64,000 bases of DNA from Thermoanaerobaculia bacterium (GTDB lineage: Bacteria > Acidobacteriota > Thermoanaerobaculia > UBA2201 > DAOSWS01): contig DAOSWS010000005.1 of NCBI GenBank assembly GCA_035593605.1, positions 52,834 to 116,833 on the forward strand. The letters run 5' to 3'. The position numbers and the translations under genes were made by a program. The notes under the pieces are model-generated. The model was not told where the DNA came from. It did not search any database and saw only the letters and a list, made by a program, of their open reading frames with translations. Of this stretch, positions 2,061 through 64,000 are shown piece after piece. Position 1 is the stretch's first letter. Each line of letters starts with the position of its first letter.

Positions 2061-2067
2061 GGCTGTC

Positions 2068-21418: not shown

Positions 21419-21530
21419 CTCTGTTCCTGCATTACTCTTTCCCGGATTGACATTGAAATGTCCGGGAAAAGAAATCTGTTATCATCCGCAAGTTCTTAAT
21501 GAGCCAAGTTCAGAAAGTGAGGTTCTTTTC

Positions 21531-38061: not shown

Positions 38062-41000
38062 TTAGTCGAAGAGAATAGTGGAAATGTCAAATTGCTTCAC
38101 GAAATCAGCAGCATCTCTGGCCGTCAGGGGACGTGAAATATGGTACCCCTGGGCATAGTTGCATCCCAGATCTTTTAGCGCACGGATCTGCTCGGCCATC
38201 TCGACGCCCTCTCCCATGACCTTCATATTCAGGTGATGGCCCAGCGAAATAATAGTAGATACGATTTCCGAACGGTCTTTGGGAGACTTCATCTTCATAA
38301 TGAAAGATCGATCAATTTTCAGAAAATCCAGAGGAAACTGATGCAGGTAACTCAAGGATGAATATCCAGTGCCAAAATCATCCACCAGGAGCTTGACTCC
38401 CAGTGCCTTCAGCTGAAACAGGGTGGATGTGACATCTTCTACCCGTTCCATGATCATACCTTCGGTGATCTCCAGGCCAAGAGAGTCGGGAGAAAGGTTG
38501 CATATGCGGAGGGTTTCACCGATGAATTCGGGAAGGTCAGGCTGGTAGAGAATGTGGTTGGAGAGGTTAACGGTGCAGGACAGATCTGCGCTTTCCTTCG
38601 TGAGGGATTTCCATTCCGAAAGTTGCCGGCATGTTTCTCCAATGACCCACCGATCAATCTCCGCCATATAGCCGGCATCGGTTGCGATCGTAAGGAAGTC
38701 ATCAGGTGTCATCAATCCCCGCTCCGGATGCTTCCATCGTATGAGGGCTTCAAAACCGTGAACTTTGGACAGATCCAGGTTAATAATCGGTTGGTAATGA
38801 AGGTTGAATTCCTTCCGGTTTAACGCGGATCGGAGCTCGTTCTCAAGCTTGAGGATGGATACGGCCCGGGCATGCATGCCGGCTTCAAAGATGGCGTAGG
38901 AGCCTCTGCCCAGAACTTTTGCCTTGTACATGGCTGATTCGGCATCCCGGAGATAGAGCTCCGGGCGGCTGTGAGCGATATGACTGAAGGAAATTCCGAT
39001 ACAGGCTGAGGTGTAGATTTCATGTTCGCCAATCGTGATGGGAGACTGGAAAGAGGTCAGGATCCGATCTGCCAGACGCGTAACCTCGGAAGGATCTTCA
39101 ACATCCTCGACCAGGATGGCGAACTCGTCTCCTCCGAGCCTTGCAACCGTGTCTCCGGGAAGGAGGCTGCCGCGGATTAATTCTCCGGTTCGTATCAACA
39201 GACGATCTCCGATGAGGTGCCCCAGGCTTTCGTTTATCACCTTGAATCGATCCAGATCGATGTGCAGAACAGCAAATGTGGTTTCTTCACTGCGACGGGT
39301 GCGCTCGATCGCCTGACCGAGACGGTCGGTGAAAAGTGCACGGTTGGGAAGAAGGGTCAGTGCATCGTGAAACGCGTCATGGAGAAGCTGCTCCTCTGCT
39401 CTCTTCCGATCGGTGATGTCGGTCTGGGACCCCGCCATTCGTATGGGACGGTTTTCCTCATCCCGCACGGCCATGCCCCTGGCAAGAACCCAGCGGTAGG
39501 TACCATCCCGATGGACGATTCGGAATTCTCTTTCAAAATGGGGCTCGAGGCCAGCCAGGTGAGCCTGAAAAGCACTTTCCACTTCCAGCCTGTCATCCTC
39601 ATGAATCCGTTCCAGCCATTCTCCAGGTTTGCTGCTTATCTCTTCCTCCGCAAATCCAAGCATCGATTTCCACCGGGGTGAATAATAAACCGTGTCATGC
39701 TTTAAATCCCAATCCCAGAGGCCGTCGTTGGCGCCTTTTGCAGCCAGTGCATAGCGGAGTTCACTTTCCTGAAGAGCCGTTTCAGATTTTTTCCGGTTTG
39801 AAGATTCTACCGCAAGGGAAACAAGGTCGGCCATCGATGCCGCGAAGAGTTCCTCATCAAATTCCCACGCTCTTCTTGGGCCAATATGTTCATGACAGAG
39901 GATCCCGATCACTTCTCCGCCGATACGGATCTGGGCATCGATCATGGAGGAAATGTGGTTTGGTTTCAGGTAGCCATTTGCAAATTCTCGCGTTCGGGGA
40001 TCGGTGAGCACGTCGTCGGTGGCTATCGTGCGGGATTCCCGGATCGATTTAAAATAGACCGGGAAATCCGCGACGGCGAGCTGGATACCGGAATCGTGAA
40101 AATCATCGCTTCGCGAATAGAGGTCAATACAGTCTAATTGTTTTCCGTCGCCCGAGAACATCCATACACTGACGCGCTCGACATCAAGGGTCTCTGCGGC
40201 TTTCCGGGTAACCTGACGGATGAAAGCAGGGAGATCGCCATGGGAAAGCTCGGCGCTTTTCGTCAGATCCAGCAGAACCCTGTTCTGGGTTCGAAGACGG
40301 TGATCACTGTCGCGAATAATGCTCTCCGCCCTTTTTCGATCCGTGATGTCGCGGCCGATTCCCTGTAAGGTTCCATCGGGTAGACGGACTGCGGAGATTT
40401 CCACGGGGAATTCCGTTCCATCTTTTCTTTTGAATGTCCGCTCAAGAAGGACCGCACGCTTTTCCCGTAAAGACGGTATCTGAAGGGGAAGGCGTTTCAG
40501 ATCTCGCTCTGGAATCAGTTCAGTGTACAATTTTCCGATTAATTCTTCCTTTGAATACCCTGTCATATTGCATGCAGCCTGGTTGACCTGGAGAATTCGG
40601 GCATCGTCACTGACAATGTAGATGGCATCGGAAGCCTGTTCGATGAGCGTCCGATAACGTACTTCACTTTCGATCACTGCACGCTGGGATTTGACGATCG
40701 ATGTAATATCTTCCACGGTTCCATCGTAGTACAGTACTTCTCCGGCGTCGTTCCGAACGACAGTCGAATTTTCCCTGACAAAGAGAGAGGAACCATCTTT
40801 CCTTTTCCACTCCGCCTCAAACCCCTGAATCGTTCCTGAAGCATGGATGACTTCCAGAAATTCTTTTCTGGTGCATGCATCTTTGTATCCCGATTCTCGG
40901 ACATCGATGGAAGAGAGGTCCTCAAACGATGAATAACCCAGCATGGAAACCAGCGCAGGATTCGCCATCAATACCTTTCCGTCAGGCGAAGTCCGATAGA

Positions 41001-43707
41001 TCCCGATGAGGGCGTTTTCATAGAGGCTTCGGAATCGTTCCTCCGATTCACGGATTCGTTCCTCCGAGAGCTTCTTTTCCGTAATGTCATCTTCGATCCC
41101 GATCATGTGCGTGATCGCGCCGTCATCATCTTTCAGAGGAGAAACGGTGAGGTGGACCCAGAATAGTTCACCGGTCTTTTTCCGATTCACAAGTTCTCCA
41201 GACCAGACGTCACCTGCTTTCACCGTTCTCCAAAGGTTCTCATGTACCTGCGGATCGTGATAGTCGGATTGAAGAATATCCGGTGTCTTCCCGATTGCCT
41301 CTTCTCGCGGCCAGCCGGTCACCTGGACGAAACGCTCGTTTACGTACTCGATCGCCCCTTCTGGATTGGTAATAATGATAATACTGCCACTTTGCTCCAC
41401 GGCACTGGAAAGCATGCGCAGTTGAGCCTGTGTCTTTCTTTCCCGGGTCGTATCTCGAATCGTTCCAAGGGTGGCAGGGGCGCCCATGTACTGGATTAAT
41501 CCTGCTGTGATGTGACAGTAAAGACGATGGCCCTCTTTGTGAATGAGGCGGATGTCATATTCAGAGGGAATGCTTTCCCCTGCCTGCCTTCGTGCATATC
41601 GGTCCAGCACCATCTCCTTGTCTTCGGGCGCGAGGATGTCTTCGTACGACACGGCCATAAACTCGGGGTGGGTGTAGCCCAGCATTTCGGCAAAGGCCTC
41701 GTTGGCGAAGATCATCTTTTGCCCCTGAAGGAGAAAAACGCCGTCGTGGATGTGCTCCACCAGAGTGCGGTAATGTTCTTCCGATTCCTTCAGCCTCTGT
41801 TCTGACCGCTTCTGATCCGTGATGTCTTTCAGGGTTCCCAGGCTGGCCACGCTGCCTTTGTAATTCAACAGACCGACGTGCATGAAAACATGGACGCGGG
41901 AACCATTCCGGTGGAGAAGCCTGAATTCGTATTCATCCGGAACGTCCTCTCCAGCCTGGCGTTTTGTGTACCGATCCACTACCCAGTCGTGGTCCTCCGG
42001 GGCGATGATGGAGTCGAAGGGGAGGGAAAGCAGGTCATTGGAACTCATTCCGACCATGCGGGCGAAAGCTTCGTTGACGTATTTGAAAATGTTGTCCTGG
42101 ATTAGAAAGACACCATCTTGGATGTTTTGAAGGAGAGTCCGGTAGTGTTCCTCCGATTCCCGAATTTTTTCTTCCGCCTGCTTCGACTCCGTGATATCAC
42201 GTACAATTCCGCAGATGGAGTGAACCCTGTCCCCTTCCATCTCCAGAGGGACCTGTACGGTATGAAAATAGTGGATTTTTCCACCAATGGTCAGTTCTCG
42301 AATTTCATCGACGATCTCTCCGCTGAAAGCCGCATTATCGACTTCCCGAATAATGGTGGCCGCTTCCGGAGGAAAGAGATCTTCAGGACACTTGCCCAGA
42401 AGCTCTCTCTGGGAGACTCCAAAGAGACGGGCCATGGAAGGATTGACAAAGGTGTACCTGCGGTCCATGTCCTTTATGAAGATGGAGTCTCGCGCGGTTT
42501 CGGTGATGGCTCTAAACCGCGCCTCGCTCTCTTTTACCTTCTTTTCGGCCCTGCGAAGTTCTTCAAGGTTTCTTACAAGAGCGACGGCAATGGGTTCATT
42601 TTTTCCCGTGCGCAGAACTTCTCCGATTCTCCGGAGGCGGACTTCCACGGGAAACTGCGTACCGTCGGCTCTTTTTGCCATCCATTCCACATCGACGGAT
42701 TCCCCGTCCAGGGCTCGTTTGACATATTGAAAGGCCTGCTCCTTTGTGCACCCGTCTCCCATGAACTGTTCGGGATCGTTCTGAAGGATTGCATCCTTAG
42801 AACATTGATACGCCTTCAGGACGTTGGCATTGACGTCGATCAGGCGTCCATCCGCTCCGTGGATAAAGATCATGTCGGGGGATGCATCGTAAATCGCCTG
42901 GAGAAAATCTCTCGCTTCCCTCAGGGATTCTTCCGCATGAACTCTCTCGGTCACATCCTCACCCGATGAGAGGGTGTGCGTGATGAACCCGTTCTCATCC
43001 CGGAGGTAGGTGTTGCGCCATTCGATCAGCCGCTCATCCCCCTTCCTGGTCCGGACCGGGTTGGCGTATTCAGTGAAGGCCTGGACCTGCCCGTGGATCA
43101 GGGATTCAAATACTCCCTTCAGCTCTCCCGCCATCCGGGAGGGAATAAAGGAGTCAAACCAGTTCTTTCCCACAATTTCAGAGACGGAATAGCCAAGAAT
43201 TTCAGCACCCTTCCTGTTGATATGGACAATTTGTGCCTGTGGATTCAGAATTAGAAGGATTACGTTTGCGACATCAAAATACTTCTGAGCCAGGTCGCGC
43301 TGGTGTTCCAGCTCCCGGATGACCGCGATCCTCTCGCTAATGTCTCGAAAAAGTCCCAGAACATGGGTCTTTCCCTCAATTACGAGATTTTTTGCGCTGA
43401 TTTCGACCGGGATGCGCTTTCCGCTGGAATGAACCACTTCCAGCGGCTCGGATATCGCTTTCCCTAAAGCCTTATGATCCTGGAAAATCTTTCTGTAGCG
43501 CTCCCGATCTTCGGGCGGGTGCAGTTCTGACTGATGCTTTCCCAGGATCTGGTCCCGGGGCAGTCCGAGCAGTTCCTCAGACCGGTGGTTGATTTCTACG
43601 ATCACGCCCCTGTCGTCGGCGATAAAAATGGCATCGTTCGCACTGTCCAGAAACGAACGTGCTTCCTCCGGCAGATGGAAGATTCCTGAATCAGACTCAG
43701 GGTCCAT
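38062..43707 (-). CDS. multi-PAS/GAF sensor diguanylate cyclase/phosphodiesterase (GGDEF-EAL)
   Basis: About 10 PAS/PAC units (recurring …NEAF…G(Y/W)…E(E/D)…G motifs) and a GAF. GGDEF (RLGGDEFAIL). C-terminal EAL domain (…QPI…EALIRW…, DDFGTGYSSL). 1881 aa. Confidence 0.85.
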   Translation of the reverse strand: MDPESDSGIFHLPEEARSFLDSANDAIFIADDRGVIVEINHRSEELLGLPRDQILGKHQSELHPPEDRERYRKIFQDHKALGKAISEPLEVVHSSGKRIPVEISAKNLVIEGKTHVLGLFRDISERIAVIRELEHQRDLAQKYFDVANVILLILNPQAQIVHINRKGAEILGYSVSEIVGKNWFDSFIPSRMAGELKGVFESLIHGQVQAFTEYANPVRTRKGDERLIEWRNTYLRDENGFITHTLSSGEDVTERVHAEESLREARDFLQAIYDASPDMIFIHGADGRLIDVNANVLKAYQCSKDAILQNDPEQFMGDGCTKEQAFQYVKRALDGESVDVEWMAKRADGTQFPVEVRLRRIGEVLRTGKNEPIAVALVRNLEELRRAEKKVKESEARFRAITETARDSIFIKDMDRRYTFVNPSMARLFGVSQRELLGKCPEDLFPPEAATIIREVDNAAFSGEIVDEIRELTIGGKIHYFHTVQVPLEMEGDRVHSICGIVRDITESKQAEEKIRESEEHYRTLLQNIQDGVFLIQDNIFKYVNEAFARMVGMSSNDLLSLPFDSIIAPEDHDWVVDRYTKRQAGEDVPDEYEFRLLHRNGSRVHVFMHVGLLNYKGSVASLGTLKDITDQKRSEQRLKESEEHYRTLVEHIHDGVFLLQGQKMIFANEAFAEMLGYTHPEFMAVSYEDILAPEDKEMVLDRYARRQAGESIPSEYDIRLIHKEGHRLYCHITAGLIQYMGAPATLGTIRDTTRERKTQAQLRMLSSAVEQSGSIIIITNPEGAIEYVNERFVQVTGWPREEAIGKTPDILQSDYHDPQVHENLWRTVKAGDVWSGELVNRKKTGELFWVHLTVSPLKDDDGAITHMIGIEDDITEKKLSEERIRESEERFRSLYENALIGIYRTSPDGKVLMANPALVSMLGYSSFEDLSSIDVRESGYKDACTRKEFLEVIHASGTIQGFEAEWKRKDGSSLFVRENSTVVRNDAGEVLYYDGTVEDITSIVKSQRAVIESEVRYRTLIEQASDAIYIVSDDARILQVNQAACNMTGYSKEELIGKLYTELIPERDLKRLPLQIPSLREKRAVLLERTFKRKDGTEFPVEISAVRLPDGTLQGIGRDITDRKRAESIIRDSDHRLRTQNRVLLDLTKSAELSHGDLPAFIRQVTRKAAETLDVERVSVWMFSGDGKQLDCIDLYSRSDDFHDSGIQLAVADFPVYFKSIRESRTIATDDVLTDPRTREFANGYLKPNHISSMIDAQIRIGGEVIGILCHEHIGPRRAWEFDEELFAASMADLVSLAVESSNRKKSETALQESELRYALAAKGANDGLWDWDLKHDTVYYSPRWKSMLGFAEEEISSKPGEWLERIHEDDRLEVESAFQAHLAGLEPHFEREFRIVHRDGTYRWVLARGMAVRDEENRPIRMAGSQTDITDRKRAEEQLLHDAFHDALTLLPNRALFTDRLGQAIERTRRSEETTFAVLHIDLDRFKVINESLGHLIGDRLLIRTGELIRGSLLPGDTVARLGGDEFAILVEDVEDPSEVTRLADRILTSFQSPITIGEHEIYTSACIGISFSHIAHSRPELYLRDAESAMYKAKVLGRGSYAIFEAGMHARAVSILKLENELRSALNRKEFNLHYQPIINLDLSKVHGFEALIRWKHPERGLMTPDDFLTIATDAGYMAEIDRWVIGETCRQLSEWKSLTKESADLSCTVNLSNHILYQPDLPEFIGETLRICNLSPDSLGLEITEGMIMERVEDVTSTLFQLKALGVKLLVDDFGTGYSSLSYLHQFPLDFLKIDRSFIMKMKSPKDRSEIVSTIISLGHHLNMKVMGEGVEMAEQIRALKDLGCNYAQGYHISRPLTARDAADFVKQFDISTILFD

Positions 43708-52773: not shown

Positions 52774-52794
52774 TCTTTTCCCATCACTAGAGAT

Positions 52795-52824
52795 AAAAAA
52801 AACACCCCGGCATTGCCGGGGCGT
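52795..52824. terminator. rho-independent terminator (strong on - strand, weaker on + strand)
   Basis: CCCCGGCAATGCCGGGG stem flanked by AAAAAAAA (a T8 run on the minus strand, right after the stop of the 52846-58509 gene). Also lies 3' of mutL. Confidence 0.8.
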
Positions 52825-52845
52825 TGAAGTTTAATGATCTGGAAG

Positions 52846-55800
52846 TCAATTACAGGTAAAGGTGACCTGTATTTTCCAGGTTCCCCCGTCGTTGTACTTG
52901 TTGAGATAGATCGTGCAGTTCCCGACGAGCTCGTAGAAAACCAGCGGCCGTCCGTTGTCGGTCAGAACAGTAGGATCCGGGTCGACGTAGGGTGAGGTGA
53001 TATCGGCGGCGTAAAAGTCGTCGTCATCTTCGGAGCCGTTGGCTTCCATCATCGAGCCTTCCCCTTCGTCGGCAACCATGTTCGCCCCGGAGGGATCAAG
53101 GGCCGGGTCAGCAGGATGGGTCTGCACAAAGATCGCGTTCAAGGCTGTGGAGAGGGGATTCGTAGAAGCAATCTCGTCATTCCGGAGAAGGTCGGGAATC
53201 GGGATCGGTCCCGAATCGGGATCTAGGTAGTCGGGAATCCCGTCGTTATCCTGGTCGTCATCACTCCAGTCTCCATTCCCGTTGGTGTCCTCCTCCGAGG
53301 TGTCATAGCCGTCCCCGTCGTCATCCACATCCTGAAAGTCGGGTTTCCCGTCCGTGTCGGTGTCCTGAAGGGTCGCCGGGGTCGTCTCGTAGGAGTCATC
53401 CAGGCCGTTTCCGTTTGTGTCGGTAATCGTGTCGATCTGACCGTCGCCATTCGAGTCCACGACCGTCGTATTGTCGTTCACGCCGTCATGATCCGCGTCG
53501 TTCCCCTCGATCAGGTCTTCCACCCCGTCTCCGTCGGCATCAAGGTCCTGAAAGTCCGGGCTGCCGTCCCCGTCGGTGTCGACGGGCTTGGTTCCCAGAT
53601 CACTGTCTCCCGCTTCGTCCGCGTCGGGGATCCCGTCGTTGTCACAGTCCAGGTCGAGGTAGTTGGGTACTCCATCCCCGTCGAAGTCTCCGAAGGATTC
53701 GTCCTCGTCGGAGATCGTGTCCCCGTCGGAGTCCAGGTCCAGGTAGTTGGGAATTCCATCCCCGTCCGGGTCGCCCAGGCCTTCCTGACCGTCCGAGATT
53801 CCATCATCGTCGCTATCGGGGTCCCTGAAGTCGGGGATCCCGTCTCCGTCGGTGTCCACCGGGGGTGTGTCCGGGTTCCCGTCGCCCCCTTCCACGGAAT
53901 CGGGGATCCCGTCGTTGTCCGAGTCAAGGTCCAGGTAGTCGGGAATCCCATCGCCATCCGTGTCCCCCGCACCCTCATCGCTGTCGTAAATCCCGTCCCC
54001 GTCACTGTCCAGGTCCTGGTCGTTGGGGATCCCGTCTCCGTCCTGGTCATCCAGCGGGGCCGAATTCTCCGTCACGTCAGGAATCCCATCGTTGTCACTG
54101 TCCGTAAGGGCGTCGGGATCCAGAAAGTCGGGCTGTGTATCCCCGTCGCCGTCTCCCGTCCCTTCAATCCGATCAGGAATCCCGTCGTCATCGGAGTCCG
54201 GATCCAGGTAGTTGGGAATTCCATCACTATCCGTGTCGTCCCCGATCGGGCTCGTGTCTCCCCCGAAGCGGTCGTATTCGTTTGCGGTGGGGATCCCGTC
54301 GTTGTCATCGTCAGTGTCAAGGAAATCGGGATTGCCATCATTGTCGCTGTCCTGCAGTGCCGCCGGTGTCGTCTCATAGGTGTCATCCAGGCCGTTGCCG
54401 TTCGCATCGGTGATCGTGTCGATTCGGCCGTCGTTGTCGGCATCGGTCACGCCGGTGTTGTCATTGGCGCCATCCTGGTCGGCATCGTTCCCTTCGATCA
54501 GGTCCCACACGCCGTCGCCATCACTGTCCAGGTCGAGGTAGTTGGGAATTCCGTCTCCATCAAAATCTCCCGCTCCCTCCGCTGCATCCGGAATCCCGTC
54601 GTTGTCACTGTCAAGATCGAGATAGTCCGCGACGCCGTCCCCGTCACTGTCCCCCGATCCTTCTGTTACGTCAGAGATCCCGTCCCCGTCGCTGTCCGTT
54701 GGTACGTCGGGATCCAGAAAGTCCGGCGATCCGTCTGTGTCGGAGTCCGCCGTACCCTCAATCTGGTCCGGAAGTCCATCCGCGTCGGAGTCCAGGTCCA
54801 GGTAGTTGGGTATGCCATCCCCATCGTAATCATCGGTCCCGGTTCCGCTGTCTTCCACGCTGTCCGGAATCCCGTCGCCGTCGGAGTCGGGATCCAGGAA
54901 ATTGGGAATCCCGTCCCCGTCGATATCCCCGGTGCCTTCGATACTGTCGGGAATGCCGTCCCCGTCGGAGTCGTCATCGATGTAGTTCCCCAGCCCGTCT
55001 CCGCCATCCGCTGTGTCCCCTGTATGTTCCGTAGCGTCGGGGATGCCGTCGCTATCGGAGTCGAGGTCGAGGTAATTGGGGTTCCCGTTGGAGTTCGTGT
55101 CATCATCTGTGGGATCGCCGTTCCCGTTGGCGTCTTCGTCCGCCGTGGGGATGCTGTCCCCGTCATCGTCCGGATCGAGATAGTCAGGGAGGGTATCGCC
55201 GTCGAAGTTCTGCGTAACGGCCGGCGTGCCTCCTTCGCTGGGGTCGTAGTGGTCGTCCCACCCGTCTCCGTCTGCGTCGGTGATTGTGTCGATCCTGCCG
55301 TCATTGTCCGCGTCGGTAACTGCATAGTCGGTAACACCGTCAAAGTTTGCATCATTGCCTTCGATAAGGTCCCACACTCCGTCGCCGTCCGAGTCCAGGT
55401 CGAGGTAGTTCGGAATTCCGTCCCCGTCGGCATCTCCCGTTCCTTCCACTGCGTCCGCAATCCCATCGTTGTCCGCATCCAGATCTGGAGTGTCGGCAAT
55501 TCCGTCCCCGTCGGTGTCAGGTTCCAGTACGAAGTCATCCATGGCGGCCGCGTCCGGATCCGTTGGGGAATAAAGGGGCGGGATCGGTGCCCCGGTGGGA
55601 TAGATCACTGCGTGCCAGGTTCCTTCCGAGCCCAGGCTCGAACCGTCGACGCTCGTCGACAGCTCACCTGATCCGTTGGTGATCACGGTCTGGGTGAGTA
55701 CGAGGGTTCCGTCTTCATCGTAGTACACCACCGTATACGACGTTGTGGGCAGGAGGGGACTTCCGTAAAGATAGATCGTATCGGCCAGCGTAAAGTAATC

Positions 55801-58509
55801 TTCAGGGTCGGTCCAGGAGGCATCGGCGTAGGAAGCCAGGGCCGTGCCCACCGGGATGGGGAAGGTGGCCGTGGCGATCGTGTTGTCGCAGGACCCCAGC
55901 CAGTAGACCTGAATCGTGTAGATTCCCTCTACCGGGAAGGATACGTTGTTGACCGAGACTGTCTCCGTGGCCGAATCGCCCGCTGCAATCGTGTGGGGCA
56001 GGGTGATCCTTGTGAACAGGGCCGAATCATAGGAGGAAAAGGTCCCGGAGGAAGTAAGGTATTGTGTGCCATCCGGGTTGATGACCCGGTAGCGGTATGT
56101 GGTGTCGTAATAGACGGCTCCCGTGGATGTGTTATTGAATGTAGCCGTCACGGTGAGGTTGTTGCCCGTCAGGCTGTACGAGGCCCGGTTCGTCGTGATC
56201 GGACCGATTGTCGACGGTGTGGCGGCAGGGTCAAGGGTGATGAGAATCGTGTCAAGAAGCGTGCCGGACTGGTAGAGTCGAACCGTCCAGGTACCCAGCG
56301 TGTCTGTCGAGGTGAAGGTGTACTCGTCCAGGGCGTCCCCGCTTCCGTCCGTCGGTACCGTGTGGGACTGGATCGCCGTACTCGAAGAGGGGGGGAAGAT
56401 GTCGATCCGGTATGTGGTCGTCGTCGACAGGGTCAGCGATGCCCCCTGCAGGTATACCGTGTCACACCGGGCAAAGAAGGTCTGGGAGATCGTGCGGTTA
56501 GGATCAGCATACGCGGCAATGTAGCTGACCGTGAGCTGGTCCGTGACTGCCGCCGTGGCTCCAGTGCCCGACGTCGCCGTCACTGTGGTCGAGTTCTGCA
56601 CGGGATAACTGGTCGGGGCCAGATCGGGAACGATGATCTCCACCACAAGGTCCATTTCCCCACCATACGCAGGAAGGGAAAACGTACCTGTAATCTGGTT
56701 TCCATCGGACGGGTTTCCGTCCCCGTCCGGATCGGTGTAATACCGGACCGTCCATCCCTGCGTCGAGGTCTGGCTCAGCGTGATCGTTTCGGATGTAATC
56801 CAGGAATTGATCAGCGTGTGGGCAAAGAAGACCGAACGGCTGTCCCCGCTGAACTTGTTTGTGTTATTTGAAAAGAGGTAGGAAGGGGTCAAGGTCAGAC
56901 GGCTCCGGATCGTTGTCGTGAGCTGAGCGTCATCCGACGTGCCGTAAATGTCGCCTACGGCTGTAACGGAGGTTACATCCACGTCGTTCAGAGTTCCTGA
57001 ATAGACCCGTACACGGAAGGTTACCGGTGTGCCGTTGAAGACCGTCCCGAAATCGGGATAGCCGTTACTGTTCGTGTCATATCCGCTCTGGATCGATTCA
57101 AAGCTCCCGTCCCCGTTTGTGTCCTCCGCGACAAGGGCCCCGCCTCCGGTGTAGATCTGCAGGCGGTAGCCGAGAGACGAAAGGACGTACAGATCAAAAA
57201 CGTCGTCCAGACCGTTATTGGTCAGCGTCAATGTGTACTCGGCATATTGCCCCACGGCGGCTGCCCCTGTCTGGAGTGACGGCTGGAGTGTAACCTGGCC
57301 AATTCCTGTGATGTCGGTGACTGAATCGTACGAGTCCAGAGGCTCGGTCAGCGAAATTGCGGTAAGGATCGTTGTGTCGATCACGTCCGTGATCCCGGCC
57401 GCGGCCGTCAGTTCCAGGCGCAGGGAAAAGGTGTTTCCGGGAGAGGCCGTTGTCAGAATCGGCGTGTCGGGGCGTGTGTCCCCCGTTCCGGAATCGCTGT
57501 TATACACAGGGTTGACGTAGTCCCAGTCCCCGTCTCCATCGGTGTCCGAGGCCATCAGGGTGTTCGTGCCGTCATCGTAAAGATCGGCCGGAAGAGCCAG
57601 GCTGGAGGAAATCTCAAAGTTGTACTCGTCGTCCAGCGTGCCTGTGTTTTTGCAGGTATGGTAATAGGTAATCGTTGCGGGATTCCCCGGCGCCACCGTC
57701 TGGGATTCGTTGTCATAAAGATCCACCAGGTAAAAGGCGAAGGAGCCGATCCCTCCGTCTGGACCGCCGAGGTTGTCGTCAATCTGCGCCGGAACCGTGC
57801 CTCCGTTGGAATTGTTGCTGGAGGAAACGTGAAAGTAGACCGGCGTCCCGGCGGGGACCCCCAGGTTTGTCCAGGGAAGGCGGCATTCGAAGCCGCGGCC
57901 GTCGGCAAAGCCGCCGATTGTGTTGGTATAGATCGTGACAGGAGGATAGGGCGCCTTGGTGTAGAGTGTTCCCGGCAGTGTATAACCGTCAGCGTACCCG
58001 GAGGCATCCACGAGGCTGTCCCCGTTGGTGTCATCCACGGCGTTATAGGTGAAGAGGTACGCTTCCGTGTTCCGGTTGGAACCATTAAGGACAACCTGAA
58101 AGACCTTTTCCCCGTCGTTCATACGCTTGTTCCGGCTGGTATCGCAGTAAAAATAGTAGGTCTGCGTGTTGGTAGAACTTCCGTACCGGGATACGTACAT
58201 GTAGATATTGGAGCCGTCATATGTCCAGGCAAAACGGTTCAGGTCCCGTCCCGAAATGTTTGTATTATTCGTGCAGTCCCGGTCCAGGGGCGGAACGTTG
58301 CACTGTGGAGAAAACTCTCCGTCGTTCGTCACCTGGAGCGGATTGGAAAGGATCGGAGCCCAGTCCGTTGCCACGCCATCCACGGTGATCGTCTTCAGGG
58401 TCGGTCCGGCCGCAAAGAGTGACAGCGCGGTGAGAATCATCAGAAGTACAAAAACCGAACATCGATACAAAAATGCGCCTGCCAGTACATGTGATTTCAT
58501 AAAATTCAT
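52846..58509 (-). CDS. giant secreted calcium-binding repeat protein (thrombospondin type-3-like Asp-rich repeats) with conserved C-terminal tail
   Basis: Signal peptide. About 950-aa beta-rich N-terminal region. Then dozens of D-x-D-x-DG-(I/V)-x-D/DLDSDGDGIPD repeats of TSP3/OmpA-associated type. C-terminal …PLVFYEL…KIQVTFTCN. 1887 aa. Confidence 0.7.
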   Translation of the reverse strand: MNFMKSHVLAGAFLYRCSVFVLLMILTALSLFAAGPTLKTITVDGVATDWAPILSNPLQVTNDGEFSPQCNVPPLDRDCTNNTNISGRDLNRFAWTYDGSNIYMYVSRYGSSTNTQTYYFYCDTSRNKRMNDGEKVFQVVLNGSNRNTEAYLFTYNAVDDTNGDSLVDASGYADGYTLPGTLYTKAPYPPVTIYTNTIGGFADGRGFECRLPWTNLGVPAGTPVYFHVSSSNNSNGGTVPAQIDDNLGGPDGGIGSFAFYLVDLYDNESQTVAPGNPATITYYHTCKNTGTLDDEYNFEISSSLALPADLYDDGTNTLMASDTDGDGDWDYVNPVYNSDSGTGDTRPDTPILTTASPGNTFSLRLELTAAAGITDVIDTTILTAISLTEPLDSYDSVTDITGIGQVTLQPSLQTGAAAVGQYAEYTLTLTNNGLDDVFDLYVLSSLGYRLQIYTGGGALVAEDTNGDGSFESIQSGYDTNSNGYPDFGTVFNGTPVTFRVRVYSGTLNDVDVTSVTAVGDIYGTSDDAQLTTTIRSRLTLTPSYLFSNNTNKFSGDSRSVFFAHTLINSWITSETITLSQTSTQGWTVRYYTDPDGDGNPSDGNQITGTFSLPAYGGEMDLVVEIIVPDLAPTSYPVQNSTTVTATSGTGATAAVTDQLTVSYIAAYADPNRTISQTFFARCDTVYLQGASLTLSTTTTYRIDIFPPSSSTAIQSHTVPTDGSGDALDEYTFTSTDTLGTWTVRLYQSGTLLDTILITLDPAATPSTIGPITTNRASYSLTGNNLTVTATFNNTSTGAVYYDTTYRYRVINPDGTQYLTSSGTFSSYDSALFTRITLPHTIAAGDSATETVSVNNVSFPVEGIYTIQVYWLGSCDNTIATATFPIPVGTALASYADASWTDPEDYFTLADTIYLYGSPLLPTTSYTVVYYDEDGTLVLTQTVITNGSGELSTSVDGSSLGSEGTWHAVIYPTGAPIPPLYSPTDPDAAAMDDFVLEPDTDGDGIADTPDLDADNDGIADAVEGTGDADGDGIPNYLDLDSDGDGVWDLIEGNDANFDGVTDYAVTDADNDGRIDTITDADGDGWDDHYDPSEGGTPAVTQNFDGDTLPDYLDPDDDGDSIPTADEDANGNGDPTDDDTNSNGNPNYLDLDSDSDGIPDATEHTGDTADGGDGLGNYIDDDSDGDGIPDSIEGTGDIDGDGIPNFLDPDSDGDGIPDSVEDSGTGTDDYDGDGIPNYLDLDSDADGLPDQIEGTADSDTDGSPDFLDPDVPTDSDGDGISDVTEGSGDSDGDGVADYLDLDSDNDGIPDAAEGAGDFDGDGIPNYLDLDSDGDGVWDLIEGNDADQDGANDNTGVTDADNDGRIDTITDANGNGLDDTYETTPAALQDSDNDGNPDFLDTDDDNDGIPTANEYDRFGGDTSPIGDDTDSDGIPNYLDPDSDDDGIPDRIEGTGDGDGDTQPDFLDPDALTDSDNDGIPDVTENSAPLDDQDGDGIPNDQDLDSDGDGIYDSDEGAGDTDGDGIPDYLDLDSDNDGIPDSVEGGDGNPDTPPVDTDGDGIPDFRDPDSDDDGISDGQEGLGDPDGDGIPNYLDLDSDGDTISDEDESFGDFDGDGVPNYLDLDCDNDGIPDADEAGDSDLGTKPVDTDGDGSPDFQDLDADGDGVEDLIEGNDADHDGVNDNTTVVDSNGDGQIDTITDTNGNGLDDSYETTPATLQDTDTDGKPDFQDVDDDGDGYDTSEEDTNGNGDWSDDDQDNDGIPDYLDPDSGPIPIPDLLRNDEIASTNPLSTALNAIFVQTHPADPALDPSGANMVADEGEGSMMEANGSEDDDDFYAADITSPYVDPDPTVLTDNGRPLVFYELVGNCTIYLNKYNDGGTWKIQVTFTCN

Positions 58510-58780
58510 CCTTTCGTAACAGCCTTAATCTGATAGACCGGACTGAAGTCTTTGGTTGTCCTTTGTCTCGAATTGTCGAGATTGAATACTCCAAACAACT
58601 TCGCAGTAAGGAATATTTCCTCTTTTCCCGAGTCTTGACACCTTTCGGCAACGATAAACCGGATAGATATCAAAACATATAGTTATGCAATACGTATGCC
58701 ATATTGGGGATTTAGTCAGGATAAGTGCAGGAAACAAGAAGAAAAATCTTGGAAAATTGATCAGGTAAGTAGTATCGAAA

Positions 58781-58803
58781 ATGGCGTTTTTGAAAAACGC
58801 CAT
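58781..58803. promoter_or_regulatory. perfect 11-1-11 palindrome ATGGCGTTTTTGAAAAACGCCAT in an intergenic region
   Basis: Read directly from the sequence. Lies in the 395-nt AT-rich spacer between the two giant genes, about 275 nt upstream of the 58509 start. Confidence 0.4.
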
Positions 58804-58850
58804 GGGTAGTAACTACTCACTTTTCTGGGTTCCGGTCAGACGATCTCGTT

Positions 58851-58881
58851 TTAAAAAAAACGCCCCGGCAAAGCCGGGGCG
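58851..58881 (-). terminator. rho-independent terminator of the 58905-64000 gene
   Basis: GCCCCGGCTTTGCCGGGGC hairpin on the minus strand followed by T8 (A8 at 58853-58860 on +). Lies 20 nt 3' of the TGA stop. Confidence 0.85.
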
Positions 58882-58904
58882 CTGAAGTTCTGCGGGAGAA
58901 AAGA

Positions 58905-61900
58905 TCAGTTGTAGGTAATGACGACCTTTCCGCCGGATTTGGTGACCATGACCGTATCCAGACCCTTGGTCAGTTCATAGAAGATCAACGGCTCAGCGCC
59001 CGGGTCAAGGTCATTGGTTTCATTGGGAAATGGATCGTTGGATAGGAATTGGGCCTTTTCCAGGTCACGCCCGGGGTTAAGACCGGGGTCGCCGGGGTAG
59101 GGCCGGAAGTTGAAGATCTCGGCGAAGGTTAATGTGGCTGCATCGTCGTTACGCAGGAGCCAGACGTCATCGACCCGAACCGTCTTGGTATCTGACGTGA
59201 CACATCCGTGAACGTCCGTGAACGTATAGGTAATGACGAATGTACCAACTCCCGCCAGAGTTGGACTGAATGTACCCAGTGAGCCATTGGTGATCCCGGT
59301 TCCAGACCAGATTCCTGACGCGGGAGAAGCGCCGCTCAGGTTGAAGGGATCGGCACCGAGCCACGTAATCTCATCGGCTCCCGCTTCGGTCGTGGTGTAG
59401 TACCACTGGCCGGTTGACGCCAGGGGATCCATATTGAAACAGGCCCCCGAAGCCGTGCCGCGGTCGGTGACCAAACAGTTGTAGGTGTGGGTTTCCGCGC
59501 CGCTGTGGGTTACGGAAAGAACGGTGTTGACCGACATGAAGATATCGGATATGTCCGCAACTCCACCGCCACCACATCCGCTCAGTTCAAAGATGTAGAG
59601 CTTGTAGTTCCCGGGACCGTGTGCCGGATCGTTGTAGAAAAGGGTGATGTCATAGGGTGCGGCTGAAGGAACGCCATAATCCTTCAGGACGATTCGATCC
59701 AGGTTTGGGGCTTCCAGTTCAATCCGCACACAGTTAAGAAGGTCGGTGGTTCCGCCAAGGATGTAGTAGACCCTGGCGATGTCGGCAGGCGGTGCGATGG
59801 TAAAACCGTTCAGGGTAAAGGCCTGTCCACCCGAGAGATCGTTATCCACGATGCCTGCCTGACCGGCTCTCCATGCTGCTTCTCCAGCTTCTCCGGGCAT
59901 GTCTGAGCCGTCTTCCTGCCACTGGGTGGTGTAAATTCCCGTCCCGCCCGTGGCGCGGACGATGAAGTCCAGGTACTCATCATAGCAGGTGGATGTCGTG
60001 GCGTTGGGTGTGACGTCAACTGAGACGCCCGTCACAACGGTAACGCTGGTGGTTTCGCTGTCGGAACATCCGTATCCGTCTTCCACGGTCAGGAGGTACG
60101 TTCCGCTGTTGGCTGTCGAAGCTCCGACGATCGTTGGATTCCTGTCAAAGGAGTCGAATCCGTTGGGACCGGTCCAGTGGTAGGAAACCATTCCGTCCGG
60201 GCCGCCGAATAGTTCGATGGTTTCACCTTCGCAGTAGGCGCCCGTGTTTGTAGCTGTGGCTACCGGGTCGGAGACTCGCACGTTCTTTGTGTCAGCGTTG
60301 AAGCAGGTACCGTCGAAGATCGTGTAGGTGAGGGTGTGAATCCCGGCTCCAGCCACGGCAGGGTTAAAGGTACCCAGGCCGGGGTTTGTGATTCCCGTAC
60401 CGCTCCAGACTCCGCCCGCAGGAGAAAAGCCGGTCATGTTGTAGGGCGGAGTGTTAATGCAGACATTATCATTGGAGCCTGCATCGACGGCCGGAAGCGC
60501 ATTGACGATAACGGTGGTTGATGTGCTGGCAATGCAGCCGTTGCTGTCTGTTACCGTCAGAGAGTAAGAACCGGCCTGTGCCAGGGTGATTCCCACGATC
60601 TGGGGGCTCTGTTGTGAACTCGTGTATCCATTAGGTCCTACCCAGCTGTATATGGACATACCCGCGGGGCCGCCAGTAAGCTGGAGGATTCCTCCTTCAC
60701 AAACCGGACCGTTATTGGAGGCGGTCACGGCCGGTGGAGCATTAACTGTTACCGTTGTCTGGGCCTGATCGGTGCAGCCTGCAGCATTGGTCACGGTCAG
60801 CGTGTAGACGCCATTATGAGAGGAAGTCGTTACGAGAATGGTTGGGCTCTGGAGTGAACTCGTGTATCCATTCGGTCCTGTCCAGCTGTAGGAGCTCATA
60901 CCGGCGGGACCGCCGATGAGTTGAACCGGAAATCCCTCGCAGACCGGGCCTGTGTTGGAAGCCGTGGCTGTGGGAGATGCATTAACCGTAACGGAGGTCG
61001 TCGTCTGATCGGTACAGCCATTGGCATCGGTTACTGTGAGCGTGTAGACACCCGCAGCCGCGGATGTGGCATCGGCAATGGTCGGGCTCTGGAGAGATGA
61101 CGTGAAGCCATTCGGTCCTGTCCAGGCATAGGAAGCCATGCTGTCGGGTTCACCGGTCAGGTCGATCGTATCACCTTCACAGTACGGTCCGCCGTTGGAG
61201 GCGGCAGCTGTTGGAGGTGTATTGACCACGACGGTCGTCGTATCCTGTCCGGTACATCCTCCGGAATTGGTTGCGGTCAGCGTGTAGTCTCCACCCATCG
61301 CCGCTGTTGCGGCCGGGATTGAAGGATTCTGTTCACTGGATGTAAATCCGTTCGGGCCGGTCCATGCGTAGGATGCCATGCTGTCCGGTGAACCGTTCAG
61401 CTGAATCGTGTCCCCCTCACAGTAGGGTCCGGTGTTCGAAGCTGTAGCCGTGACGCCAATATCGACAGTTACCGAAGTTGTTGCGTCATCGGTGCATCCA
61501 TCGGCATTCGTTACGGTAAGAGTATATACACCGGCCATTGCGGTTGTCGAAGAGAGAATCGAAGGACTCTGTTCACTGGAGGTATACCCGTTGGGACCTG
61601 TCCATGCGTAAGAGGACATCCCATCCGGACCGCCCGTGAGCTCGATGGTCTGGCCTTCGCAGTAGGGGCCGCCGTTGGAGGCCGAAGCCACCGGTGCGGT
61701 ATTCACCACCACCGTGGTTGTGTCCTGATTCGTGCATCCATCACCATCGGTGACGGTCAGCGTGTAGTCACCCGCCATGGCGACCGTTGCGGAGAGAATG
61801 GAAGGACTCTGTTCGCTGGATGTGTACCCGTTCGGACCCGTCCATGCATAGGTTGTCATGCCGTCGGGAGCACCGGTCAGCTGGATCGTGTCTCCTTCGC

Positions 61901-64000
61901 AGTAGGGACCGCCGTTCGTGGCCGTGGCTGTCGGCTGTGTCCATTCACCGGTGTTGCTGGTCAGGTCGGACGTGGCGCAGCCGGAGGTGGTGCCCAGGTC
62001 GCTGATGAGGCAGTTGTAAGCGTGACTCTGGGGCGTGGAGTAGGTGAGGGTCAGCTTGTGGTTGACCCCCATGAAGATATCGGAAATGTCCGCAGAACCG
62101 GTGTCGCATCCGGAAAGTTCCAGGACAATCAGATTGTAGTCGCCGGGGCCGTACGTATTGTAAAACCCCGTGATATCGAAGGGGGAAGCTGCGGCAACGC
62201 CGTAGTCTTTCACCACCAGACGGTCAAGCGTGGGGGCTTCCAGCTCGATCCGGACACAGTTCAGCAGGTCGGTGGTCCCGCCCAGTGTGTAGTAAAGTTC
62301 GGCAAGATCCGCAGGGGAAGCAATCGTGAAACCGTTCAGGGCAAAGGACGCACCGGCGGGATCGTTGTCGATCAAACCGGTAGCTCCCGTGTTCCAGGCG
62401 GCTTCACCCGTCTTGCCCGCCAGATCACCGCCATCTTCCTGCCACTGGAGACCGTAGATTCCCGATCCGCCGGAGGCAAAGACGTTGAAGGTGATGTTTT
62501 CATCGACGCAGGCCGAAGACGTGCCGTCGGGCGTGGCATCGACGGTCATCACCGTGTAGACAGATACCGTGGTTGTCTCAGCGTCAGAGCAGCCGTTGGC
62601 ATCGGTTACCGTCAGTGTGTAGACTCCTGCCTCTGCAGTGGTAGCGGATGCAATCGCGGGGCTCTGTTCCGAAGAGGTGAATCCGTTGGGGCCTGTCCAG
62701 GCATAGGTGGTCATTCCGTCGGGTCCGCCCGTCAGCTGGATCGTTTCCCCTTCGCAGTAGGGACCGCCATTGGAGGCCGTGGCCACCGGGGCTGCGTTCA
62801 CGACGACATCCGTCGTGTCCTGGCCGGTACAGCCGTTGGTGTCCGTGACCGTCAATGTGTAGGTGCCGGCTGCAGCCAGTGTCGCTGCCAGCGTTGGACT
62901 CTGCTGGTCGGAGGTGAATCCGTCCGGTCCGGTCCAGGCATAGATCGCCATGCTGTCCGGGGCGCCGGTGAGCTGGATCGTGTCACCCTCACAGTAGGGT
63001 CCGCCGTTGGAGGCCGCAGCCACCGGGGGCGTATTGACGACAACATCCGTCGTATCCTGACCCGTGCAGCCGCTTCCGTCCGTAATCGTCAGGGTATAGG
63101 TGCCTGCAGCCGCCAGGGTCGCGGGAACGGTTGGATTCTGTAATGCTGACGAGAATCCATCCGGTCCGGTCCAGGCATAGATCGCCATGCCGTCGGGAGC
63201 GCCGGTCAGCTGGATCGTGTCTCCCACGCAGTAGGGCCCGCCGTTGGTGGCCGTAGCTACCGGAGCCGCGTTCACGACAACGGTAGTCGTGTCCTGATTC
63301 GTGCATCCATCACCATCGGTGACGGTCAGCGTGTAGTCACCCGCCATGGCGACCGTTGCGGAGAGAATGGAAGGACTCTGTTCGCTGGATGTGTACCCGT
63401 TCGGACCCGTCCATGCATAGGTTGTCATGCCGTCGGGAGCACCGGTCAGCTGGATCGTGTCTCCTTCGCAGTAGGGACCGCCGTTCGTGGCCGTGGCTGT
63501 CGGCTGTGTCCATTCACCGGTGTTGCTGGTCAGGTCGGACGTGGCGCAGCCGGAGGTGGTGCCCAGGTCGCTGATGAGGCAGTTGTAAGCGTGACTCTGG
63601 GGCGTGGAGTAGGTGAGGGTCAGCTTGTGGTTGACCCCCATGAAGATATCGGAAATGTCCGCAGAACCGGTGTCGCATCCGGAAAGTTCCAGGACAATCA
63701 GATTGTAGTCGCCGGGGCCGTACGTATTGTAAAACCCCGTGATATCGAAGGGGGAAGCTGCGGCAACGCCGTAGTCTTTCACCACCAGACGGTCAAGCGT
63801 GGGGGCTTCCAGCTCGATCCGGACACAGTTCAGCAGGTCGGTGGTCCCGCCCAGTGTGTAGTAAAGTTCGGCAAGATCCGCAGGGGAAGCAATCGTGAAA
63901 CCGTTCAGGGCAAAGGACGCACCGGCGGGATCGTTGTCGATCAAACCGGTAGCTCCCGTGTTCCAGGCGGCTTCACCCGTCTTGCCCGCCAGATCACCGC
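58905..64000 (-). CDS. giant repeat-containing surface protein (SprB-like about 80-aa Ig-like repeats with Cys pair), 5' end beyond window
   Basis: At least 11 repeats of …NGGPYCEGDTIQLTG.PDGM..YAWTGPNG(F/Y)TS….P.I……AG.YTLTVTD.(N/D)GC…TTV.V… Three copies of a separate 150-aa module. C-terminal tail homologous to the neighbouring giant protein. The ORF is still open at the window edge. Confidence 0.7.
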   Translation of the reverse strand, partial: GDLAGKTGEAAWNTGATGLIDNDPAGASFALNGFTIASPADLAELYYTLGGTTDLLNCVRIELEAPTLDRLVVKDYGVAAASPFDITGFYNTYGPGDYNLIVLELSGCDTGSADISDIFMGVNHKLTLTYSTPQSHAYNCLISDLGTTSGCATSDLTSNTGEWTQPTATATNGGPYCEGDTIQLTGAPDGMTTYAWTGPNGYTSSEQSPSILSATVAMAGDYTLTVTDGDGCTNQDTTTVVVNAAPVATATNGGPYCVGDTIQLTGAPDGMAIYAWTGPDGFSSALQNPTVPATLAAAGTYTLTITDGSGCTGQDTTDVVVNTPPVAAASNGGPYCEGDTIQLTGAPDSMAIYAWTGPDGFTSDQQSPTLAATLAAAGTYTLTVTDTNGCTGQDTTDVVVNAAPVATASNGGPYCEGETIQLTGGPDGMTTYAWTGPNGFTSSEQSPAIASATTAEAGVYTLTVTDANGCSDAETTTVSVYTVMTVDATPDGTSSACVDENITFNVFASGGSGIYGLQWQEDGGDLAGKTGEAAWNTGATGLIDNDPAGASFALNGFTIASPADLAELYYTLGGTTDLLNCVRIELEAPTLDRLVVKDYGVAAASPFDITGFYNTYGPGDYNLIVLELSGCDTGSADISDIFMGVNHKLTLTYSTPQSHAYNCLISDLGTTSGCATSDLTSNTGEWTQPTATATNGGPYCEGDTIQLTGAPDGMTTYAWTGPNGYTSSEQSPSILSATVAMAGDYTLTVTDGDGCTNQDTTTVVVNTAPVASASNGGPYCEGQTIELTGGPDGMSSYAWTGPNGYTSSEQSPSILSSTTAMAGVYTLTVTNADGCTDDATTSVTVDIGVTATASNTGPYCEGDTIQLNGSPDSMASYAWTGPNGFTSSEQNPSIPAATAAMGGDYTLTATNSGGCTGQDTTTVVVNTPPTAAASNGGPYCEGDTIDLTGEPDSMASYAWTGPNGFTSSLQSPTIADATSAAAGVYTLTVTDANGCTDQTTTSVTVNASPTATASNTGPVCEGFPVQLIGGPAGMSSYSWTGPNGYTSSLQSPTILVTTSSHNGVYTLTVTNAAGCTDQAQTTVTVNAPPAVTASNNGPVCEGGILQLTGGPAGMSIYSWVGPNGYTSSQQSPQIVGITLAQAGSYSLTVTDSNGCIASTSTTVIVNALPAVDAGSNDNVCINTPPYNMTGFSPAGGVWSGTGITNPGLGTFNPAVAGAGIHTLTYTIFDGTCFNADTKNVRVSDPVATATNTGAYCEGETIELFGGPDGMVSYHWTGPNGFDSFDRNPTIVGASTANSGTYLLTVEDGYGCSDSETTSVTVVTGVSVDVTPNATTSTCYDEYLDFIVRATGGTGIYTTQWQEDGSDMPGEAGEAAWRAGQAGIVDNDLSGGQAFTLNGFTIAPPADIARVYYILGGTTDLLNCVRIELEAPNLDRIVLKDYGVPSAAPYDITLFYNDPAHGPGNYKLYIFELSGCGGGGVADISDIFMSVNTVLSVTHSGAETHTYNCLVTDRGTASGACFNMDPLASTGQWYYTTTEAGADEITWLGADPFNLSGASPASGIWSGTGITNGSLGTFSPTLAGVGTFVITYTFTDVHGCVTSDTKTVRVDDVWLLRNDDAATLTFAEIFNFRPYPGDPGLNPGRDLEKAQFLSNDPFPNETNDLDPGAEPLIFYELTKGLDTVMVTKSGGKVVITYN
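61720..62431. repeat. exact intragenic direct repeat copy 1 (partner 63289-64000, period 1569 bp)
   Basis: 61722-62431 is nucleotide-identical to 63291-64000 as far as the window allows. Identity is confirmed by the identical 72-aa frame-artifact ORFs 61787-62005 and 63356-63574. Sequence upstream of the left boundary differs. Confidence 0.85.
63289..64000. repeat. exact intragenic direct repeat copy 2 (truncated by window edge)
   Basis: See copy 1. Confidence 0.85.

Follow-up and report, generated by a model that had tools for sequence, protein, structure and literature searches.

Gene and Protein at the Locus

The stretch of DNA considered here (the window) comprises 64,000 nucleotides of a Thermoanaerobaculia bacterium (contig DAOSWS010000005.1, positions 52,834 to 116,833), and the gene under study is a complete coding sequence (CDS) of 1887 codons for amino acids on its minus strand, at positions 52846–58509. 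The open reading frame (ORF) list contains it exactly as claimed by an earlier sequence-only reading, which described a secreted protein dominated by Asp-rich repeats of the thrombospondin type-3 (TSP3) kind. Behind a signal peptide, the protein comprises three modules: an N-terminal head of β-sandwich domains, an Asp-rich array, and a compact C-terminal domain, referred to below as the tail. The gene is real, and the three modules exist. Three features escaped the sequence-only reading: the array can be exchanged among members of a modular family, the C-terminal domain is undescribed, and the neighboring protein carries that domain too. As judged by profile comparison, the tail represents an undescribed, lineage-restricted family, which is the main novelty of the protein.

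A ribosome-binding-site-like AAAGGA (58509–58514) sits 8 nt upstream of the second ATG (58500), which is likely the true start codon and gives a protein of 1884 residues. The NCBI record HPR63144.1 (“hypothetical protein PK014_02890”, from a Thermoanaerobaculia bacterium metagenome-assembled genome (MAG)) has the same length of 1884 residues and falls in the same 90% cluster. The predicted mass of the exported protein is ∼195 kDa. The possibility of a chimeric assembly, raised with the original description, is ruled out because the identical 1887-residue product is encoded on nine contigs from independent assemblies, including ENA ERZ795048 and JGI 3300025611 and 3300010350 (∼150 kb each), and because the array repeats have diverged at the DNA level, giving a single weak Tandem Repeats Finder hit with 77% matches.

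The signal peptide spans residues 1 to ∼33 (MNFMKSHVLAGAFLYRCSVFVLLMILTALSLFAAG; 58411–58509, minus strand) and has a hydrophobic core, with a 19-residue Kyte-Doolittle maximum of 2.35 at residue 17. Kyte-Doolittle and motif checks of the 1887-residue protein found no lipobox at the N terminus and no further transmembrane segment. AlphaFold2 places a helix at residues 12–30 with low confidence. In the homologues of the head, the conserved part always starts at PTLKTI, straight after a similar hydrophobic segment. The proposal that the protein is secreted is thus borne out by the signal peptide and by the relatives, all of which are surface-type β-sandwich proteins.

The N-Terminal Head

The head (residues ∼35–985; 55555–58407, minus strand) was delineated from homologues and an AlphaFold2 model and consists of about eight β-sandwich domains of the Ig/MG-like type. 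The model is all-β with a mean predicted local distance difference test (pLDDT) score of 85.2 over the N-terminal ∼950 residues, in agreement with the ∼950-residue β-rich region anticipated from the sequence. There are 26 detectable relatives of the N-terminal 990 residues, the closest 15 of which share 30–53% identity across 85–100% of the module. A Foldseek search of the PDB with the model returned generic MG/Ig arrays only, at template modeling scores of 0.1–0.2, and no enzyme fold among the matches. Against Pfam and NCBIfam, no family scored above threshold, and the matches to MG2 and DUF11 were weak. The head defines a small, uncharacterized family, which counts as a novelty at that level.

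A protein distantly related to the head (P0015) has genuine Cys-containing TSP3 repeats (a precomputed PF02412 annotation), Cys-rich repeats, and a MYXO-CTERM-like C terminus composed of GGGCVCG, a hydrophobic stretch, and RRRTQRAA. The C-terminal anchor that accompanies this head thus varies between lineages.

Architecture of the Asp-Rich Array

The array occupies residues 998–1763 (53221–55518, minus strand) and is made up of 49 contiguous DxDxDG-type units, as defined by register, composition, and segments matching the TSP_3 profile. At 766 residues, it accounts for 41% of the protein, a somewhat smaller share than the “about half” first described. In the whole protein, the strict DxDxDG motif occurs 51 times, the overlapping [DN]x[DN]x[DN]G pattern 61 times, and the full DxDxDGxxDxx[DE] motif 26 times. 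The array is ∼30% Asp with a single Cys in 766 residues, and a count over 786 array residues gives 266 acidic and 7 basic side chains.

Most of the array is an alternation of a 13-residue unit, DxDGDGIPNYLDL, with a 15-residue unit, DSDGDGIPDxxEGxG. This alternation is broken by three ∼100-residue super-units with the signature GVWDLIEGNDA...NDGRIDTITD. Super-unit 1 (residues 1039–1140; 55090–55395, minus strand) reads GVWDLIEGNDA...NDGRIDTITD...IPTADED...NPNYLD, and the same module is also found in Bacteroidota proteins in front of a PF13585 domain. Super-unit 2 (residues 1328–1425; 54235–54528, minus strand) has 72–75% DNA identity to the other super-units, and super-unit 3, delimited by sequence comparison (residues 1657–1752; 53254–53541, minus strand), lies directly before the C-terminal domain. 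At a higher level, the array is composed of ∼2.4 copies of a ∼300-residue block, with 58–67% protein identity between blocks. The arrays of the orthologues contain 40–45 loops, two super-units, and zero or one Cys, as compared with 49 loops and three super-units in the window protein. Since the orthologues differ by whole blocks, the array grows by block duplication. The array was initially called unusually long, a description that applies in a relative sense only, given the 40–45 loops of the orthologues and the frequency of this repeat class in Bacteroidota.

An antisense ORF of 727 codons (53488–55671, plus strand) runs opposite the array. It reads the reverse complement of the sense codons in phase and stays open because TTA, CTA, and TCA together account for just 1 of the 786 array codons. 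When the gene was shuffled synonymously, the open antisense run still averaged 550 codons, and this frame can be ruled out as a gene; it is a by-product of composition. Although the ORF itself had been noticed correctly, its attribution to a codon bias for GAC does not hold, since it makes no difference to that frame whether an Asp codon is GAC or GAT.

Relationship of the Array to TSP3 Repeats

TSP_3 (PF02412) is the sole consistent Pfam match of the array. The gathering cut-off is 25 bits for TSP_3 and 25 bits for TSP3_bac (PF18884). Scanned by segment, the array gives TSP_3 scores of 33.1 bits (residues 1255–1345), which passes the cut-off, and 24.9, 21.2, 20.6, and 15.2 bits, with one segment unmatched; scanned as a whole, the protein scores 19.5 bits and falls short of it. 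The matches span only positions 2–26 of the 36-position profile, which is the Ca-loop part. The TSP3_bac matches (18.5, 15.3, and 14.5 bits by segment) are all below threshold, although PF18884 and PF02412 do appear in the precomputed annotations of shorter relatives of the array. Canonical TSP3 repeats contain cysteines that are missing here, the array having 1 Cys in 766 residues. The assignment to TSP3-type Ca-loop repeats, for which a Pfam scan and a repeat count had been proposed as checks, is accordingly upheld in part: the motif, the 49 contiguous loops, and the segment at 33.1 bits favor it, and the whole-protein score, the TSP3_bac scores, and the lack of cysteines do not. A weak partial match of the whole protein to NCBIfam BamM, located on the repeat stretch, scored 27 bits against a cut-off of 315 and does not amount to membership. 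A PDB sequence search with a 186-residue array segment returned nothing at E ≤ 1, for which composition filters are probably responsible.

Tandem DxDxDGxxDxxD loops are common to the array and to the TSP3 repeats of thrombospondin, OmpA-family proteins, and Myxococcus TraB. Thrombospondin is reportedly built with ∼13 such loops. The array differs from the thrombospondin repeats in having 49 loops, no intrarepeat cysteines, and partial profile coverage. TraB is an envelope protein in which TSP3 repeats link two domains (PMC12045341). In at least twelve families, thrombospondin among them, Ca2+ is bound by the Dx[DN]xDG motif in a nearly identical manner (PMC3123361), and, from membership in this motif class, Ca2+ binding by the array loops is a reasonable expectation. 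The title of Dai et al. 2017 (cited in PMC12045341) describes Ca2+ binding by bacterial OmpA TSP3 repeats as dependent on intrarepeat disulfides. Because the array is devoid of these cysteines, its Ca2+ affinity and structure may differ from those of the OmpA repeats.

An Interchangeable Middle Module

A search with a 153-residue piece of the array identified 384 relatives, many of them from Bacteroidota (Tenacibaculum, Maribacter, Lutibacter, and Flammeovirgaceae). Annotations as TSP_3 or TSP3_bac are frequent in the Bacteroidota relatives, as is a terminal PF13585, the gliding-motility-associated, type B C-terminal domain (CTD) of the type IX secretion system (T9SS). Four of them (P0176, P0206, P0209, and P0243) contain the same 13- and 15-residue units plus the ∼100-residue super-unit, immediately before the CTD. 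These Cys-less arrays are the closest match to the window array in both sequence and architecture. In contrast to them, the window protein ends in a different C-terminal domain with no detectable homology to the T9SS CTD. Because the units and the super-unit recur in front of the T9SS type B CTD, the array belongs to a common and known class, and it is an ordinary member of a widespread group of Cys-less, TSP3-like Ca-loop spacers. The best match of the array segment (P0175), with TSP_3 and TSP3_bac annotations, carries the label of a eukaryotic transcriptome protein (EukProt, Hanusia phi) and is probably a bacterial contaminant in that data set.

The relatives detected with the N-terminal 990 residues form a modular family with a conserved ∼960-residue head, a conserved tail (LLRND...PLVFYEL...ITY), and a middle that varies. 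P0007, P0008, and P0010 lack this middle altogether; P0008 is encoded in the same genome (PK014_00245). Ig-like repeats fill the position in P0003, P0004, P0005, and P0009, and an Asp array does so in the window protein, P0001 (in which the array is shorter), P0056, P0063, and the orthologue at locus L007. The middle module is thus interchangeable among relatives, being absent, a set of Ig repeats, or an Asp array. That Ig repeats or nothing can take its place is the strongest reason to regard the array as a spacer rather than the functional core of the protein, and most likely one that is both swappable and stiffened by Ca2+. Because one head and one tail are combined with Ig repeats, with Asp arrays of variable length, or with nothing in between, the family represents a natural experiment on spacer function.

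The composition of the array also invites a different explanation, in which it serves as a cation sink or mineral-nucleating polyanion and the protein is a matrix component whose ∼50–60 Ca sites either act as a buffer or trap for Ca2+, Mg2+, or metals or provide a template on which carbonate or phosphate precipitates around the cell. The extreme charge of the array, its dozens of potential Ca sites, its enlargement by one block with respect to the orthologues, and the cyclic di-GMP (c-di-GMP) enzymes that flank the two-gene cluster, which are suggestive of biofilm or matrix regulation, are all consistent with such a role. However, close relatives have Ig repeats or nothing at this position, which fits a role in length or spacing better, and the array is not featureless poly-Asp, its DxDxDG loops being regular and having hydrophobic positions that are conserved (IP.YLD). 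We consider the cation sink unlikely and favor the spacer.

The C-Terminal Domain

The tail of the window protein (residues 1767–1887; 52849–53211, minus strand) has the sequence pattern LLRND...GEG...NGSEDDDDFY...DPDPTVLTDNGRPLVFYEL...VTFTCN. Two forms of this domain are observed in the undescribed family to which it belongs: a short form of ∼82 residues and a long form of ∼110 residues, to which the window protein belongs and which is distinguished by a conserved insert, GEG...NGSSDDDDFY...DPDxTVLxD. The AlphaFold2 model of the tail is compact and confident (pLDDT of 91.6) and predicts that Cys1865 and Cys1886 lie close together, and comparisons with Pfam, NCBIfam, and the PDB yielded no relative.

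A profile of 12 tails was used for an exhaustive search of 1.84 billion representative proteins, which returned 139 clusters at E ≤ 1e-3, 54 of them at E ≤ 1e-10. The family emerged in this exhaustive search; a word-indexed search with the same profile gave 7 fragments only. The window protein (P0035) scores 86.4 bits against the profile at residues 1768–1881 of 1884 and ends in ...VTFTCN. The adjacent 3156-residue protein (P0048) scores 104 bits at residues 3070–3155, corresponding to a short-form tail at ∼58908–59171. Among the fetched proteins, 146 of 154 occurrences of the tail lie within eight residues of the C terminus. The last strand ends in Tyr, Phe, Trp, or His in 130 of these 146, and in 89 the aromatic side chain belongs to the final residue. 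The tail occurs once per protein, and a signal-peptide-like N terminus is present in 56 of 80 full-length carriers. Its passengers are mutually unrelated surface-type modules (Big_6, Big_13, DUF11, DUF7927, DUF7507, FG-GAP, and He_PIG), and the source genome has at least three carriers, two of which adjoin. The tail is therefore a compact, conserved C-terminal module found on many different passengers. In five proteins (P0066, P0073, P0146, P0148, and P0172), the match is near the N terminus; these are possibly gene-calling fusions, products of read-through, or true exceptions.

A scan of GTDB species genomes, based on an 8-sequence alignment and one peptide pattern and thus giving a lower bound on the taxonomic range, located at least four tail loci, all in Thermoanaerobaculia/Acidobacteriota and one of them, with the long form of the tail, in a MAG assigned to Thermoanaerobaculum aquaticum, a species that has been cultured. 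No description of the tail or of a Thermoanaerobaculia sorting domain was found in the literature that could be searched.

Similar to the T9SS CTDs, PEP-CTERM, MYXO-CTERM, and GlyGly-CTERM, the tail is short, lies at the extreme C terminus of unrelated exported proteins, and, as is typical of known sorting domains, is lineage-restricted with several carriers per genome. It has no sequence or profile match to any of these four, however, and no transmembrane helix or solved fold relative. Distribution patterns of this kind have revealed new sorting systems before, namely exosortase/PEP-CTERM, rhombosortase/GlyGly-CTERM, and the T9SS CTDs. GlyGly-CTERM was found from the same kind of pattern (PMC3237569). 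From its position and distribution, the tail probably serves in sorting or anchoring and is specific to this lineage.

Alternatively, the tail could be a terminal functional domain, such as a ligand-binding, oligomerization, or Ca-dependent lectin-like tip, with release or anchoring achieved by other means. The fold has no known relative from which a function could be read, the acidic NGSSDDDDFY motif of the long form could be a metal or ligand site, and no partner gene was found near the examined loci. Such a role would not, however, account readily for the confinement of the tail to the extreme C terminus in 146 of 154 occurrences with an aromatic strand end, nor for its single copy in each of many carriers, which have unrelated passenger modules and number several in a genome; this is the signature of known sorting domains. 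In addition, the tail holds the position that the T9SS type B CTD takes after the same cassette in Bacteroidota. A terminal functional domain is accordingly regarded as improbable, though a shade less so than the cation sink, and a sorting or anchoring domain remains the preferred assignment.

Far less probable still is that the protein belongs, in disguise, to the substrates of a known pathway, whether as a T9SS cargo whose CTD has diverged, as an RTX (repeats-in-toxin)-type adhesin of a type I secretion system (T1SS), or as a substrate of an exosortase (PEP-CTERM or MYXO-CTERM). The array-plus-CTD layout does parallel that of the Bacteroidota T9SS cargo, Ca-binding acidic repeats are typical of T1SS adhesins, and the distant head relative P0015 has the Cys-rich, transmembrane, and Arg-rich elements of a MYXO-CTERM-like end. 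However, the tail has no similarity to the T9SS CTD: it matches neither the type A (TIGR04183) nor the type B (PF13585) model, and homology to the type B CTD is ruled out by an hhalign probability of 0.09%. Within the 64-kb window and a further ∼20 kb of flanking sequence, no T9SS core genes are present, and Acidobacteriota are not known to have a T9SS. Export through a T1SS is opposed by the complete absence of GGxGxD motifs, the presence of a signal peptide, and the housekeeping nature of the neighboring genes, and processing by an exosortase or sortase by the absence of an LPXTG motif, a PEP motif, and a C-terminal transmembrane helix (Kyte-Doolittle maximum of 0.32 over the last 60 residues).

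Transcription Unit and Genomic Context

The gene is followed by an intrinsic terminator (52793–52825, minus strand; hairpin 52825–52801), which folds into an 11-bp stem with eight G-C pairs, a 3-nt loop, and a T8 tail. The predicted folding energy of −20.7 kcal/mol (z = −5.1; none of 200 shuffles was as stable) agrees with the strong terminator noted in the sequence-only reading. Upstream, a 395-nt spacer (58510–58904, minus strand) contains the terminator of the neighboring gene (58859–58883) and a palindrome (58781–58803), with the AAAGGA element (58509–58514) at its downstream edge. Because this spacer follows the neighbor's own terminator, the gene is likely a separate transcription unit, which supports the suggestion of its own promoter region as far as the unit is concerned, but a σ70 consensus was not found in the 395-nt spacer. 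The palindrome, a perfect 11+11-nt repeat (ATGGCGTTTTT-C-AAAAACGCCAT) between the neighbor's terminator and the start of the gene, may serve as an operator or form a second hairpin. Both giant genes have nearly identical terminators (52801–52825 and 58859–58883), ACGCCCCGGCAATGCCGGGGTG and GCGCCCCGGCTTTGCCGGGGCG, each followed by T8, suggesting a common origin or a recurrent terminator type in the genome.

The neighboring gene (58905–64000, minus strand) encodes a PKD/Ig-repeat protein of which only the 3′ part lies in the window; the full 3156-residue product is encoded on L001–L004. This protein has a long internal duplication, and the block IDNDPAGASFALNGFTIASPADLAELYYTLGGTTDLLNCVRIELEAPTLDRLVVKDYG occurs almost verbatim twice in the part encoded within the window. 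One flank of the giant pair contains MutL, PPDK, GlyQS, RecO, and an arginase-family gene. The other contains a lytic transglycosylase, a deoxyhypusine-synthase-like gene, and, beyond the window edge (L003/L004, 1–6535), two GGDEF/Y_Y_Y proteins. An 1881-residue multi-PAS/GAF-GGDEF-EAL protein is encoded ∼9 kb away (38062–43707, minus strand), so that c-di-GMP genes are observed on both sides of the pair, an arrangement that may reflect biofilm-related regulation.

Housekeeping genes also surround the paralogue P0008 and the L007 orthologue. The locus of the latter adjoins Skp-LpxD-FabZ-LpxA, from which it follows that the host makes lipopolysaccharide (LPS) and is diderm. The remainder of the window is composed of metabolic or housekeeping genes. 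The only outer-membrane assembly-type gene in the window encodes a 400-residue Omp85-superfamily protein (21447–22649, plus strand) and is located ∼30 kb from the gene under study. At 414–3456 (plus strand), a gene for a DUF3373 protein (372 bits) precedes one for a multiheme cytochrome c (Cytochrome_cB, Cytochrome_C7), an arrangement that resembles an outer-membrane electron-conduit module.

Proposed Function and Implications

Taken together, we favor the reading, with a probability of roughly 60%, that this is a Sec-exported modular surface protein of an LPS-bearing diderm, in which an adhesive head is joined by a Ca-loop stalk to a tail that directs the protein to the surface or anchors it there. 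The protein would be exported by Sec. Its distal head, the conserved and family-defining end, would presumably bind a ligand or mediate adhesion. Outside the cell, each DxDxDG loop would bind Ca2+ in the style of an EF-hand or TSP3 repeat, and Ca2+ would turn a floppy acidic chain into a stiff, extended, polyanionic stalk that holds the head off the cell. The length of this stalk would be adjustable in evolution, and the C-terminal domain would direct the protein to the cell surface or hold it there. The modules themselves are observed; Ca2+ binding, the stalk role, adhesion by the head, and sorting or anchoring by the tail are what we infer from them. The Ca-dependent adhesin or matrix protein originally envisaged is plausible in this light.

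The proposed stalk would share its logic with the giant adhesins of Gram-negative bacteria (for example the BIg regions of SiiE, LapA, and MpIBP), in which long Ca-binding repeats extend an adhesive module far from the cell surface. The extenders of RTX adhesins are folded Ig-like domains with Ca2+ at their interfaces, and these proteins are secreted by a T1SS without a signal peptide. In contrast, the array consists of loops only, and the window protein has a signal peptide and is devoid of RTX nonapeptides.

Several observations weigh against the proposed function. The sub-threshold TSP_3 score of the whole protein, the TSP3_bac scores, and the missing cysteines, with the difference in Ca2+ affinity and structure that may follow from them, bear on the stalk. 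For the tail, there is no solved relative of the fold, and its role rests on position and distribution. Beside the gene itself, its paralogue, and its orthologue, no cognate secretion or anchoring gene was found, only housekeeping genes.

A more specific proposal, which we advance tentatively and hold to be doubtful as yet, is that Thermoanaerobaculia have an undescribed outer-membrane sorting system for which the tail serves as the signal for recognition or anchoring. The tail would then be a nonhomologous analogue of the T9SS CTD, the array-plus-CTD cassette having been kept across phyla with the sorting domain exchanged. The tail is a rare, confidently folded domain that is not recognized by Pfam or NCBIfam, in a poorly studied class of Acidobacteriota. 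If the proposal is true, this signal would mark the surface proteome of Thermoanaerobaculia and give a handle on the machinery that handles it.

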